Origin: Lophium mytilinum
Taxonomy: Eukaryota
DNA: 64,000 nucleotides
Assembly (NCBI GenBank): GCA_010093605.1
Contig: MU004198.1
Span: forward strand, 560,726-624,725
Reading direction: 5' to 3'
Under the pieces are notes generated by a model, which did no database searches, was not told the DNA's origin, and was given only the letters and a program-made list of their open reading frames with translations. The translations under genes were made by a program, and so were the position numbers. Below, piece by piece: positions 16,576 through 52,349 of the stretch. The first letter of the stretch is position 1. Each line of letters begins with the position of its first letter.

Positions 16576-17329
16576 ATGCCCAGCATGTCCGCCGCCGTGC
16601 CGACACCCAACCCACCCGACGACCCCTACCTACGAGTACAAGCACACACCTGTCCAAAGTGCGGCGCCGAATACGCCCACACCCTCGACGAGCACAACGA
16701 CAGCGACAAGCGCCGAATATCAGAACTAGAATCCCAGATCAGGCTCCTAACCGAAAAGGCCACCTCCGCCGGTACGCCCTCCCTTCCTCCCAAACCCCCA
16801 CAAAGCTCTAGCTAACTCCAAATCTTCTCCAGTCGACAAACTCACCGACTACGAAGACGAGCTCCGCCGCCTCAAATCCACCCAACCACCCCCCGAACCC
16901 CCCCGCTCCTCCACCGACACCGAAGCCCCCCGCCCCACCACCTCCTCCAGCACCTCCGCCCCCAAACCCTCCCGCTTCTCCTCCCTCCTCGGCGCCCGCC
17001 GCGACACCCCCCCGCCCCTCCCCCCCGTCCCCTCGCCATCAGCCCAGCAACAACCCGACCTCCGCGCCGCGCTGGAGCGCGAGCAGAGCCTCCGCGCGGC
17101 AGCCGAGGGCAAGCTCACCGCGATGAGCGGGGAGATCGAGGATCTCAGCGTGCAGCTGTTCCAGCAGGCGAACGAGATGGTAGCGACGGAGCGGAAGGCG
17201 CGGGCGAAGCTGGAGGAGCGGGTGGCGGTGCTGGAGTCGCGGGACGACGAGAAGCGGAAGCGGTTGGAGAGGTTGGAGGGGGCGATGCGGAGGATTGAGC
17301 GGGTGAGGGGGTTGTTGCAGGTTGGGTGA
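16576..17329 (+). CDS. Short Sec2p-domain (GDP/GTP exchange factor-like) coiled-coil protein
   Basis: CPKCG near the N-terminus, then RRISELESQIRLLTEKATSA|VDKLTDYEDELRRL (intron about 16772-16832). EIEDLSVQLFQQANEMVATERKAR resembles the Sec2 ELEELTASLFEEANKMV motif. Confidence 0.8.
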
Positions 17330-24137: not shown

Positions 24138-25132
24138 TCAGGCGCCAATCTTTATCACCACCTTGCCCCTCGCATGTCCAGACGCCGTCTTCGCAAACGC
24201 CTTCTCATACTCCTCCAACTTCCACACACTATCCACAACTGTCTTGCACAGTCCCCTCTCCATAAGCCCCGAAATAACAGCCAGCTCCTCTCCCCTCGAC
24301 TCCATAATGAAGAACAGCCCCTTCACCCCCTTCGGCGCCCCTCCCTCTGGCTCCTTATACCGCGGCACAATACTCACAAACGTCCCCCCTTCCCTCACCA
24401 CCGTCCACGCATCTTCCATTGACTTCCCCCCCGCACAATCAAAAACCACATCAAACTTTTCCTCTCCTCCTCACCAGCCACCCACGCCTCCAAACTCGTC
24501 TCCGTATAATCAACCACCTCATCCGCTCCCAACCCACTTACAAACCCCGCATTCCTCCCACTACACGTCCCAACCACATACGCCCCCGCCAGCCGCGCAA
24601 ACTGCACCGCCCACAACCCCACCCCCCCACTCGCCGCCAGAACCAGCACCCTCTTCCCAGCATTCTCCACAACTCCCCTCCCATCCGCCCCTAACGCCGC
24701 CAGCCCCCCATGCTCAAACAGCGCCTGCCACGCCGTCTCCGCGCTCATCGGCACCGTCGCGGCCTCGACCTCGCTCAGCGCCTCGGGCCGCAGCGCCGCT
24801 TCCGAGGGGGCGATGGTCGCGTACTCCCGTGCGCAGCCTTCGCGGGCGGCCGTCACGCGGCCGTAGATCTCATCGCCGGGAGCGAAGGGCGAGCCGGCGA
24901 CGGGGGTGAGGACGGTGCCGGCGACGTCGAAGGCGGGGACGTGGAGGGCGGGCCAGGCGACGAAGGGGCCCCAGGTGAGTTCGCCGTTGGTGAGGGCGGT
25001 GGCGTGGACGCGGATGAGGTGCTCGGTTGGCGGGGGGGTGGGAACGGGGAAGGCGGGGGAGAGGGATAGGGTGGAGGTGGTGGTGTTGAAGAGGATGGTG
25101 GGTTGGGTTTTGGGGATTCGTGGGGTGGGCAT
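24138..25132 (-). CDS. MDR-superfamily NADPH:quinone oxidoreductase-like protein, with a frameshift near 24457 (sequencing error or pseudogene)
   Basis: LIRVHATALTNGELTW, DVAGTV, TAWQALF, VLVLAASGGVGLWAVQFA and LGADEVVDY in one frame; KFDVVFDCAGG...GHARGKVVI* in another. The frame changes within aggaaaagttt. Confidence 0.85.
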
Positions 25133-44003: not shown

Positions 44004-46324
44004 ATGGCCAACCCCTCCATCTCTGCCCTCGAGTTCTGCCAGCGGAAGTTTGACTATCTGATCGTCGGTGGCGGCACGGCTGGTCTCGTCGTCGCAGCAC
44101 GTCTGACCGAGCGTCCCGACATCACGGTAGGAGTCTTGGAAGCGGGACCTGCAGCTGTCGACGACCCAATCATCAAGGTCCCGGGTCGTTTTGGAGAAAG
44201 CCTAGGCACGGAATACGACTGGCAATTTGAGACAGTACCGCAGCCAGGTTTGAATGGTCGGCGCATTCCCTGGAACCGAGGACGGGTTCTCGGCGGGACA
44301 AGCGCGCTCAACTTTATGACTTGGAACAGAGGCAACCGCCAGGACTATGATGCATGGGAAGAGCTGGGGAACACGGGCTGGGGTTGGGATAGCCTTCTGT
44401 GAGTCCATCCAGCCCCGCGTTGCACTGCGCTCAGCCGTGCTCACGCTCAGTCAGCCCGTTCTTCAAGAAATCGGAGACCTTCGACGAGCCGTCTGCAGAG
44501 CATCAATCTCGTCACCATACCCAGTTCAAAAGCGAGTTTCATGGAAGCAATGGCCCCGTCCGGACTGTCCACTCCAAAGAGTACTCCATGCCTCACCAAT
44601 ATTGGCACGCAACTCTGGACCGCCTAAGCACTAGAACAAATACGAGCCATTTCTCGGGATCTAACCTCGGGGCATTCACCACCCTAACATCCGTAGATCC
44701 AGACACAAGAACGAGATGCTCTTCGGCAACTGCATACTACCTGCCCAACTCGTCGAGGGAAAACCTTGTGTTGCTTACTGAGGCTACTGTCCTAGAAATA
44801 AACATCGAAAAAGACGGCCGAGATGAATGGGCCGCGAAAGGGGTCAAATTCATCCACGCGGGCCAGGCGTTCGTCGCACATGCAGGCTGCGAAGTGATAC
44901 TCTGCGCAGGTAGCGTGCAGTCACCACAGTTGCTAGAGCTGTCGGGAGTCGGGAGCCCTGACGTCCTCGAGGCGGCTGGCATTCCTCTCAAAGTCTGCAA
45001 TCCGAACGTGGGGGAGAACCTCCAGGACCATATGAGTAAGACCCTCCACTCCATGCAGCGCCAACACAGTAGTCTATGTGCGTTTTCTCCGTGGCTGCGC
45101 GGGGTGCTTCGATAATCTCTCAGCTATCGCTGCGGGATGATTCGCATAACAAACCGAGCACGCTGGGCATGGAAAAGCGGCATACTCAGCCAGCATTCTC
45201 TCTCGTGCGGTCGCGTGTACACCTGTGTGCCACTGCCTCAAGTGCTTCATCAAGCTTCCGCATAGCACGGGCTATGAGTTTCAATCTCTTTTACTTTTTA
45301 AAAATGTGTCGAAGCACCGCAAGCAATGGCAGACAGGTGTACACAAGGCGAGTGTTCGAAAAACGAAGTCAAGACCCCGAACAGTTACAGAAGAAACACG
45401 CACATATTATTCTACGGCAATTGCGTTATGCCAGCACTTGCAGGCGATCTAACGGTATTTCTAGTGACGGCGATGATCTTCGAGATTGACCCCCGCATCA
45501 TCGGTCCCGACGAGTTACGCGCCGATCCAAAGCTGGCTGAGGCTGCTGATCTTACTTATGAGACGTCACAGTCTGGCGTACGTGCAATGTTGCCATGTGC
45601 CCTCAGCTACGTTCCCGTCTCACAAGTCATACCCTCCGCAACGATCGCGGGATTGGCGCGACGAGTATCGACGCCGAAGAGCAGTCTGCGAGATCGAGTC
45701 CTAGCCAAGCAGTTCGCTCCAGGCGTGCTTCGTGGGCAGGTGGAATATCTGTTCGATGTCGGAAACTGGAGTCAATATTTCAAGTCGGAGCCTGGTAAGG
45801 TTTACGGCACGATGCTAATGATGCTCCAACTTCCCTTCAGCCAGGGCTCCGTCCATATTCCGCCAAAGTCGGCCGCAGGGCCGCCCACAATGCTAACCAA
45901 GCCAGTCATTGACCCTCAGTACTATGGAGGAGAGGGCGGGGGGGTTGACTTTGACATCATGACGGCAGGGCAAAAGTTCGCCGCAAAGATCTGCTCCACT
46001 GCGCCGCTCTCGAACATCATCAAGTCTCGCGTCTTTCCACCTCAGCAAGGCGCTACTGCGGACGAAGAAGACTTCACAGACTTTGTAAGGAACTTTACTG
46101 CTTCCGACTGGCACCCTGTTGGCTCGTGTGGGATGGGCGGCTCGGCTGGTATCGCAGCCGGAGTAGTTGACGACAGACTGCGGGTGTATGGTGTCGGTGG
46201 CCTCAGAGTTGTCGACGCAAGCATCATGCCCTTGCAGATCTGCGCGCACGTCCAAGCGACTATCTATGCGATTGGGGAAAAGGGCTCGGCTATGATCTTG
46301 GAAGATCGGAGGGTCGGGGGATGA
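44004..46324 (+). CDS. Intracellular GMC oxidoreductase (AA3-like), 3 exons
   Basis: FDYLIVGGGTAGLVVAARL (FAD binding), GRVLGGTSALN, SPQLLELSGVG, VGENLQDH; catalytic DWHPVGSC and AHVQATIYAIGEK (His/His pair). No signal peptide. Introns at about 44399-44453 and 45036-45464. Confidence 0.95.
45052..45430 (+). other. Extended fold-back RNA structure filling GMC intron 2 (candidate introner-like element or cis-regulatory RNA)
   Basis: Nested complementary segments found by hand: 45075-45083/45398-45406, 45091-45097/45382-45388, 45100-45105/45374-45379, 45106-45111/45364-45369, 45155-45161/45352-45358, 45215-45236/45323-45344, 45242-45248/45311-45317. Confidence 0.7.
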
Positions 46325-49929: not shown

Positions 49930-50149
49930 GAGACAATGCTATTCAGCACTGGGCTTTGAAAAAGATTTCAGTGAACTATAGTCAAGCGCATATTAGCGAT
50001 TACAGATATCAAGATTTCAGACATGAATAATAATAACACTTGTAGATCCAAGATCCTAATGCCACAACAAGTTAATCCCCTAGTAGAAAAGAGGAGTATA
50101 AGTTGATTATATCTCTAGGCGTTAGTATCTATACACTCCCTTCTTAGTA

Positions 50150-50302
50150 GTTGCACGGGACGAAACCGTGAGCGTTTGAACGTGATACAACGAACGTTAG
50201 ATAATGTTATAAGAACGTTAGAGAAACGTTTTACAATGCATTAAATGCTGTATATATACTCCGTTGCTGTCAATGTAGAATAGAACTGAAGCAATACAAT
50301 TC

Positions 50303-50338
<36 letters not shown>

Positions 50339-50369
50339 ATATTCTCCCATCAACTCTATACCTTTAACA
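50150..50369 (+). mobile_element. Short LTR-like fragment (possible solo LTR) nested in the relic
   Basis: TGTTA at 50205 and TAACA at 50365-50369 form terminal inverted ends. Also a TATATATA box and CAATACAA. It keeps CpA/TpG, unlike its flanks. No clear target-site duplication was seen. Confidence 0.45.
50303..50338. repeat. (CTAT)n microsatellite, about 9 units
   Basis: Seen directly. Confidence 0.95.
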
Positions 50370-51019
50370 ATACCTGGGTGAAATTTTATAATAGTAGATG
50401 CTATAAAGTAGTCTTAGAGAATAGTTTTATTTTAGTAGTATATATAAGGCTGTGCATACTTATGTATTTATATCTAGGGGCTAAATATACTACTAACCTA
50501 GTTATTAGAACCTACTCTAAGGCTCTCCACTAAAGTATAAGGCTAAATAATAAGGCTAGAAATAAGGGCTATCTAACAAGAATATAATGCTTATATACTA
50601 TACTACTGTATTTAGTAAAAAGGCTTTTATAGTTAGTTGATAACTTAAGCAAGCTTATAGAGGCCTTAGCAATACGTATAAGGTAATAGAAAGAGGGTAA
50701 AGTACTAGATTTAAGAAGGTATACAGTAAATATAAAAGCTATATATAGCTACTAATATAGTAGTAGAGGGTAGAATAGTTACAGGAGTAAGAATTACATT
50801 TACTAAAAGGGAGAGAGAGTAGAAGAAGATAACCTTAATAATATTATATTAAAGATAAGGCCGTAGCTATTATACTACCTAGGGCAGACGTCGCAAAAAG
50901 AAGAGATAATAGATAATAAGACGCCGCCCTCCGCAATTAGGAAGGGGCCTAAACATTTATTATATACCGCTTGCATACCTACACTAATCTACCTTACTAT
51001 ACTAATACTCTATCTATTA

Positions 51020-51113
<94 letters not shown>
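51020..51113. repeat. (TCTA)n microsatellite, about 23 units
   Basis: Seen directly. Confidence 0.95.
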
Positions 51114-52349
51114 ATATTAATATATCTATTAATTAACTAACTTATCTAGTTACTTATATATCTATCTAAAAATATTCATCTCCTAACTATTTAACTTATG
51201 CTACTAAAATCTATTTTATAATACTTTACTATATTTTATCCTTACTATCTTACCTTTACTATCTTTTATTACTATACTTTAATTCTATAGTATAAGTAAT
51301 AAATATTGTAAAAAGGCTAAGAACCTCTATTTTTATATAGTAGAGTTCTCTATATAACAGAATTAGTTTAACTAAGTAATATCTTGAGAGTTCTTTTTTT
51401 ATCTGATATATTTCTAATTAAATTTTTATTAATTTCTAGTAATTTCTTTTTGAATTTATTACTTATATATAAAAAGTACAGTATTTTTATCTCTACTTTT
51501 AATTAATTATTTCTAAGTACTAAAAGTACTCTAGTTATACTCTTCTGTTGGTAAATTAATATAATAGACAATTTAAATTTTAAAGCTGTAGTATAAAATT
51601 CGCCTATTTAAAAGTATTAATATAAATATTTATACTATTAAAGTAATTATAAATAATACTCTAAGTTTATCTAGATAGATTAGAAGTATATATATATATA
51701 ACTTCTTAATAACCTAATATTAGTATACTTATATAAGTTTATATTCTACACTAAATTAACTTAATTTAGAAGCCTATATACTAGGTAATAAATAGATAAA
51801 GTATAGTATAACTTTAAAGAAGGTTTTTAAATAGTATCTAAGTAATATAATATAGACTAGCACCTTAAAGTTATAATTTAGAAATAACTTATTAAAGATT
51901 AGAATTAGTATATATTATAGCTATTTTAAAATACTTAATATTAATATATAGATTTATAATTAAATTAAAATAAATTAGCTCTATTATAATAGATACTTAA
52001 ATATCTCTAAAAAAGTATTTACTATATTAATTACTTATTATCTATATGCAATATCTCTATTTATTTTCATGGGCTGCACAATCTTAAGGCTAAAAGATTC
52101 CAACAGCTTAACCAGTTGAATTAGCCTCGAGCTACGTCTCCTCGAGCAACTTGACAACTTCTACCTTTCCCATCACCGCGGCCGCTTGTGTGACCCGCTC
52201 GCTTGTGGATTACGTTATCGCGTAGGTAACATAATGTTCTGCCTAAGGCACTTTGCACTTATGCGCCTAATAGAATTTGACCATATTTCCCTTGCATCAA
52301 TAGCAGTCACCTTCACGAGACACTCAGTCACCCGCTTTGTCCTTCCAGA

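Follow-up and report, generated by a model that had tools for sequence, protein, structure and literature searches.

Miniature inverted-repeat transposable elements (MITEs) and fold-back elements are short, non-autonomous derivatives of DNA transposons with inverted-repeat arms. Among Dothideomycete fungi, van der Burgt et al. reportedly described introner-like elements (ILEs) in 2012, and structured elements are also found in the fungal introns that hold thiamine pyrophosphate (TPP) riboswitches. Fungal ILEs are described as occurring in hundreds of near-identical, stably folded copies of about twice the regular intron length (PMC3609843; PMC4457414), the symmetrical introns and spliceosomal twin introns, or (stw)introns, of Hypoxylaceae have terminal inverted repeats of 45-55 nucleotides (nt) with the whole intron as the repeated unit (PMC8469720), and introner families across eukaryotes have median lengths of 30-654 nt, with terminal inverted repeats in 72 of 177 families (PMC9860276). 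Here we analyze a 429-nt intron (intron 2, positions 45036-45464) in a GMC-family oxidoreductase gene of Lophium mytilinum. All coordinates refer to the window, that is, the whole 64,000-nt stretch of contig MU004198.1 under study (assembly GCA_010093605.1, positions 560,726 to 624,725 of the forward strand). The original prediction, made from the letters of this DNA, had taken the intron for a sense-strand RNA fold with a competing helix, and had proposed a mobile intron, a small-RNA precursor or a splicing switch. We consider it probable that intron 2 is an old, normally short intron that holds a MITE-like fold-back palindrome from a dispersed repeat family and is still spliced. On this reading, it is common genome clutter and not an RNA switch.

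The host gene lies on the plus strand, comprises three exons and encodes a flavoprotein. Exon 1 (44004-44398) contains the N-terminus that binds flavin adenine dinucleotide (FAD); the open frame places its probable ATG start at 44004, and its end is set by an RNA-like joint from 44398 to 44455. Intron 1 (44399-44454, 56 nt, GT..AG) is an ordinary short intron and serves as the comparison for intron 2. Exon 2 (44455-45035) ends in ...NLQDHM plus one base of the Met codon that follows, intron 2 is in phase 1, and exon 3 (45465-46324) closes with a stop codon at 46322-46324. In Pfam comparisons, exon 1 matches positions 1-62 of the GMC_oxred_N profile (E 3.5e-15), exon 2 continues this match up to position 217 of 218 (E 1.8e-16), and exon 3 matches the complete GMC_oxred_C profile (1-139 of 139, E 2.1e-26). 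The closest relatives with solved structures are a fungal FAD glucose dehydrogenase (4ynt) and then other GMC enzymes, in alignments that stop short of the exon 2/3 junction on the exon-3 side.

The evidence for splicing comes from contigs of public sequencing runs aligned to the gene region at a likeness of at least 80%. Four runs were used: X1, which behaves as RNA and whose label is a guess, since none of the runs that contain the sequence is on record as RNA; X2, a DNA run and possible source of the window; and X4 and X7, both labelled as other organisms. Every sampled word of the gene region is present in X1. One X1 contig joins 45035 exactly to 45465 at a depth of 79.5, skipping the 429 nt of intron 2 between GT..AG borders, and a second GT..AG joint links 44398 to 44455 across the 56 nt of intron 1 (depth 85.3). 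Because of these two joints, we infer that X1 is RNA, and it contains processed transcripts. The same borders are marked by a contig that stops exactly at 45035 (record 1, depth 85.3) and another that begins exactly at 45465 (record 7, depth 64.6). The intron is the one originally predicted, running from GTAAGA through a branch-site-like CTAAC (45449-45453, 12 nt before the AG) to the terminal TAG. The statement that most introns here measure 45-60 nt agrees with the single other intron compared, of 56 nt, and is not confirmed beyond that one.

Intron 2 is retained in one X1 contig of 489 nt (record 2, 45006-45494, depth 9.9), which could be pre-mRNA or contaminating DNA. Taken as a rough guide only, the contig depths suggest that the spliced form predominates over the unspliced one in this single RNA-like sample. 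The length of the intron is a multiple of three (3 x 143); stops interrupt all three forward frames, and frame translation confirms the predicted premature stop at 45113-45115 on read-through.

On the sense strand, intron 2 has a minimum free energy (MFE) of -152.6 kcal/mol, compared to -123.4 +/- 5.9 kcal/mol for dinucleotide shuffles (z -4.96), and none of 100 shuffles folds as well, in line with the strong fold that had been claimed. The helices drawn by hand in the original prediction exist at their places, and most of them are well supported. Five of the outer stems have mean pair probabilities of 0.96, 0.89, 1.00, 0.99 and 0.93; the 22-bp helix averages 0.905, GUGCUUC/GAAGCAC reaches 1.00 and the hairpin at 45261-76 has 0.82; two others, AGUAG/UUAUU (0.36) and CGAGCAC/GUGUUCG (0.35), are weak. 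The reverse-strand control speaks against an RNA-level origin of this fold, as the antisense strand of the intron reaches -167.8 kcal/mol (z -6.34). For the palindrome alone (45068-45411), the z-scores are -6.5 on the plus and -7.0 on the minus strand with RNA parameters, and -5.3 and -5.2, respectively, with DNA parameters.

The frequency of G-U wobbles on the sense strand had been taken as a sign of RNA-level constraint. However, G-U pairs make up 9 of 132 pairs in the sense MFE structure and 21 of 149 in the antisense one. In an alignment that sets the left half of the palindrome against the reverse-complemented right half, 86 of 115 columns are complementary (score 71 versus 36.7 +/- 4.8 for shuffles). 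Of the 29 mismatches, six would form G-U pairs on the sense strand and ten on the antisense strand, while the remaining 13 would do so on neither. Given that folding is no weaker on the antisense strand, where G-U pairs are also more numerous, the fold of intron 2 is a consequence of inverted-repeat DNA and not a feature of the sense-strand RNA.

The inverted-repeat DNA forms an imperfect, lopsided palindrome of 344 nt (45068-45411), which is non-coding and consists of a left half of 223 nt and a right half of 121 nt. Three inverted repeats were found in it (I1, I3 and I5). The outer left arm at 45075-45111 pairs with the outer right arm at 45364-45406 (I5), as supported by the arm alignment and by pair probabilities of 0.89-1.00, and an inner inverted repeat of 34 nt is 82% complementary with 12 perfect pairs. 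On either side of the palindrome, the intron retains a unique 5' part with the 5' splice site (45036-45067) and a unique 3' part with the branch site and 3' splice site (45412-45464). These signals stand 32-39 nt (5' splice site) and 53-58 nt (branch and 3' splice sites) outside the palindrome. The intron that remains after its removal is longer than the 50 nt or so first estimated, namely 85 nt when 45068-45411 is taken out or 97 nt when 45075-45406 is; a remainder of about 59 nt is obtained only when the weak outermost pairs of the MFE structure are counted as part of the fold. A 10-nt perfect complement also links the left half of the intron with exon 3 (45186-45195/45533-45542, within a 25-nt inverted repeat of 76%), probably by chance.

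The inner arms of the palindrome belong to a family of dispersed repeats. Of the 24 X2 contigs that align at 80% likeness, one is the source contig and the other 23 fall within 45104-45371, since all other bins equal the depth of the source contig (153.2). The depth sum rises to 2678.6 in the bin 45305-45371, where it is 1254.6 in X1. In contrast, the ends of the intron are single-copy in X2 at a likeness of 80% or more, with a depth of 153.2 in the bins 45037-45103, 45372-45438 and 45439-45505. The repeat-bearing X2 contigs reach lengths of 18 kb, with about single-copy depth in each case, and the copies therefore appear to be dispersed in unique surroundings. In X1, 13 of 17 records are less than 99% alike and represent other copies of the repeat. 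The core was also found in the runs labelled as other organisms, in four of eight records of X4 and one of two of X7. The suggestion of a fold-back mobile origin has thus gained support from the repeat family in the inner arms, with 23 other X2 contigs and further copies in the runs of two other organisms.

Most copies align to 45307-45345 in the inner right arm (records 3-6, 10-15, 18-21 and 25), whereas X2 record 9 aligns to 45208-45259 and the match of one X1 contig starts at 45155. Compared by eye, the loose ends of the copies resemble the reverse complement of approximately 45155-45285, with a TAGC-loop-GCTA hairpin, GGAAACT, the core, CGACCGCA, a purine-rich run and TGCT.GCTGAGT in this order. 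This likeness leads us to read the left half of the palindrome as containing a fuller copy of the repeat unit, antisense to the gene (45155-45285), and the right half as a short second copy of the core in the opposite orientation (45307-45345, plus strand). The fuller copy would hold the core at 45208-45248, the small hairpin at 45261-45276 and the CGACCGCA motif, whose complement is at 45205-45212. One X4 contig (record 18) has the same loop-side spacer as the insert in intron 2, a hint that the fold-back layout may not be confined to this locus. Within the window, a blastn search (word size 7) gave no second copy of intron 2, matching just the intron itself and its inner inverted repeat. A metagenome scan with a 19-base core motif returned 15 loci in which blastn of the intron matched the motif alone (13-25 nt), as expected of chance matches, and the matches listed for an 11-nt core motif in literature full text appeared unrelated (human, mouse and antibody studies). 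A tRNA or short interspersed nuclear element (SINE) origin was rejected, as ARAGORN finds no tRNA-like gene in 44900-45600. As a separate observation, an X1 contig of 4008 nt and depth 519.6 (record 5) has the core at its positions 117-155, and therefore at least one copy of the repeat lies near the end of an abundant transcript.

The age of the intron site was assessed with 120 homologues of exon 3, the best of which (68% identity) comes from a Dothideomycete, the group of the ILEs. Across the junction, 70 of the 120 share the spacing H-M-M-TAM of the spliced product. Eight homologue models (P0011, P0012, P0013, P0014, P0016, P0018, P0020 and P0067) carry inserted residues precisely at the junction, with Ser first and Val last. 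Such inserts are expected from read-through of a phase 1 GT..AG intron, because A|GT gives Ser and G|TG gives Val, and their second residues (K, E, M and T) fit donors of the GTAAG, GTGAG, GTATG and GTAC types. The implied introns measure 48, 48, 48, 57, 60, 60, 75 and 78 nt, which is close to the remainder of 85-97 nt outside the palindrome here. The Ser/Val pattern is consistent in eight of eight long inserts and is drawn from peptides, not from DNA. Set aside were 15 homologues without a motif of the NLQDH type as patterned, 25 without the downstream anchor pattern (most of them visibly of normal spacing with other residues), and P0010 and P0038, with short Val-ending inserts that look like mis-set splice sites. 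Because the eight homologues have an intron at the same site and in the same phase, intron 2 is, on these alignments, older than its insert. We note in passing that in these eight models translation seems to run on across an in-frame intron at H-M|M-TAM, and the models are likely annotation errors.

The TGA found at both exon edges was also considered as a codon-adding target-site duplication. This candidate was rejected, as the M-M-T spacing is shared by 70 of the 120 homologues and the repeated TGA is conserved coding sequence (ATG-ATG-AC) to which no codon has been added.

The best surviving alternative, though in our judgment an unlikely one, is that the repeat is an introner or ILE that created intron 2 on insertion, bringing or recruiting its splice sites. 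Like the ILEs of Dothideomycetes, intron 2 is longer than regular introns (429 nt beside a neighbour of 56 nt), has a stable predicted structure, as described for these elements (PMC3609843), and contains repeated sequence, with 13 copies of the core carried by contigs of X1, the RNA-like run. There are also reports of introns gained in parallel at one site or close to it (PMC4457414). However, the ILEs are repeated as whole introns, splice signals included, while the ends of intron 2 are single-copy and its splice signals lie well outside the palindrome. Its length is about eight times that of a regular intron, not twice as for fungal ILEs (PMC3609843). Nor does the site look like a recent gain, since eight of the 120 homologues, from several lineages, appear from their peptides to have a short intron of 48-78 nt at this exact site and phase, and there is no extra codon relative to the 70 homologues of normal spacing. 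The introner option of the original prediction is therefore disfavoured.

The symmetrical (stw)introns of Hypoxylaceae resemble intron 2 in being spliceosomal, in having inverted repeats that form a long hairpin, in the lack of an Rfam match and in normal splicing. They differ in that the arms of intron 2 begin 32-39 nt inside the intron (at 45068-45075, not 45036). The TTTCTAGAAA palindrome that is typical of them is absent from intron 2, and their split (D1,2) donor has no counterpart, as the donor here is a plain GTAAGA and X1 contains one joint only.

The closest match is provided by the MITEs and fold-back elements. The insert is short (about 340 nt), non-coding and palindromic, and it appears to be multi-copy and dispersed among unique contigs; it lies within a gene, folds equally on both strands and has inverted-repeat arms. 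In contrast to typical MITEs, it lacks a demonstrable target-site duplication and defined termini, its arms are very unequal (223 versus 121 nt), the core seen in common with other copies spans about 40-130 nt, and no autonomous partner is known for it. Given the eukaryotic introner survey (PMC9860276), the presence of a palindromic element within an intron is well within known biology.

According to the explanation that we favour, a fold-back repeat, or two inverted partial copies of one, would have come by transposition into an old intron that measures about 50-80 nt in related fungi. The splice signals would have stayed in the old flanking parts, which are unique and lie beyond the palindrome. 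Once transcribed, the arms of the palindrome would pair and loop out about 340 nt, so that the branch point is kept close to the 5' splice site and the intron may be recognized much like a short one. In yeast, secondary structure within introns can shorten the effective distance between 5' splice site and branch point. In the predicted structure of intron 2, 22 steps lead from the 5' splice site to the branch A when helices are jumped, compared to 416 nt along the linear sequence. A genome with very short introns may thus still splice one of 429 nt because the hairpin loops out the extra length, and the hairpin would be either helpful or neutral for splicing. Unspliced transcripts, ending at the stop at 45113, are presumably discarded.

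Several points weigh against this explanation. The transcript nature of X1 is deduced from its joints, and contig depths gauge the ratio of spliced to unspliced forms only roughly. At a likeness of 80% or more, the other copies match over about 35-56 nt only, a length at which one element and two inverted partial copies look alike, and the putative element ends, target-site duplication and full family length rest on no complete second copy. A TA stands on both sides of TGTGCG...CGCACA in the single copy observed; it could be a target-site duplication or, being itself palindromic, part of the repeat arms. The read-through in the homologues is deduced from peptides and would be firmer from DNA. 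Finally, no empty site, that is, the intron without the palindrome, was found in a close relative, with the X7 contig (151 nt) covering the first 23 nt of the intron (to 45058) and the X4 contigs missing the intron ends.

The other alternatives concern what the transcribed palindrome may do. Compatible with a fold-back insert in an old intron, although improbable in our view, is a hairpin precursor, in which the transcribed inverted repeat would be diced to small RNAs resembling small interfering RNAs or microRNAs and directed against other copies of the repeat. The 34-nt inner inverted repeat lies within a long stem, and the repeat is transcribed both in this pre-mRNA and in other X1 contigs. 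However, the stems are interrupted, and the sole microRNA model matched, mir-547, reaches 14.6 bits where its gathering score is 90, which is noise.

We regard as very unlikely the proposal of a regulatory RNA in which two competing folds of the sense pre-mRNA govern the splicing or retention of the oxidoreductase transcript. It draws on the minor intron-holding contig beside the spliced form, on the premature stop that retention would yield, and on the proposed competing helix, which does exist as a perfect 10-bp complement between 45103-12 and 45309-18. At equilibrium, however, this helix is negligible, with a pair probability of 0.000, and enforcing it lifts the MFE from -152.6 to -124.3 kcal/mol, at a cost of 28.3 kcal/mol. 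The complement arises because the GTGCTTC/GAAGCAC motif occurs three times in the palindrome (at 45104, 45242 and 45311). Further evidence against a switch is that folding of the antisense strand equals or surpasses that of the sense strand, sense-strand G-U pairs are not in excess, the core is a dispersed repeat and the spliced form is dominant in X1. The Rfam comparison of intron 2 gave four matches, all far under their gathering scores and none better than E 0.056; the best, a minus-strand match, had 18.6 bits where its gathering score is 37. Intron 2 shares with fungal TPP riboswitch introns a structured element with a possible alternative pairing, but differs from them in having no Rfam match at gathering score, a structure that is not strand-specific and a sequence that is a dispersed repeat.

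An antisense box C/D small nucleolar RNA (snoRNA)-like gene in the left arm was rejected as extremely improbable: the reverse complement of 45185-45256 does contain TGATGA and CTGA at a spacing of about 65 nt, yet a snoRNA hosted by the intron would lie on the other strand, the motifs have no adjacent terminal stem, the loose ends of other copies have different letters in place of TGATGA, and no snoRNA model matches there.

Elsewhere in the window, an AT-rich block at 50400-52000 has a GC content of 0.325 (50001-51000) and 0.18 (51001-52000), compared to about 0.5 in other parts, and includes AT-rich inverted repeats at 51274-51484 and 51498-51896. This block looks like a degraded repeat relic, possibly altered by repeat-induced point mutation (RIP). 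GC-rich imperfect inverted repeats were observed at 16899-17225 (38 nt, 71%) and 24508-25028 (30 nt, 77%), with a GC content of 0.58-0.61 and a strong GC skew.

Intron 2 is no evidence of a novel regulatory RNA. It matters mainly as a caution, in that the fold of an intron can owe a very strong z-score to inverted-repeat DNA, a question that the reverse-strand control settles at once. The locus also illustrates cleanly how an intron eight times longer is tolerated in a fungus whose introns measure about 50 nt, with an insert that is self-complementary and splice signals that remain in the old flanks. The repeat unit, with its core of about 40 nt, TAGC-loop-GCTA hairpin and CGACCGCA, recurs at 80-90% likeness in the runs of at least three differently labelled organisms, often in transcribed contigs. 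More speculatively, and with low confidence, it may represent an undescribed fungal fold-back family that settles preferentially in introns and untranslated regions and persists because the hairpin renders it invisible to splicing. A repeat family that favours introns would bear on how fungal introns lengthen, and, if it indeed prefers introns and untranslated regions, it would offer a route for the growth of very short fungal introns and a possible source of hairpin small RNAs.

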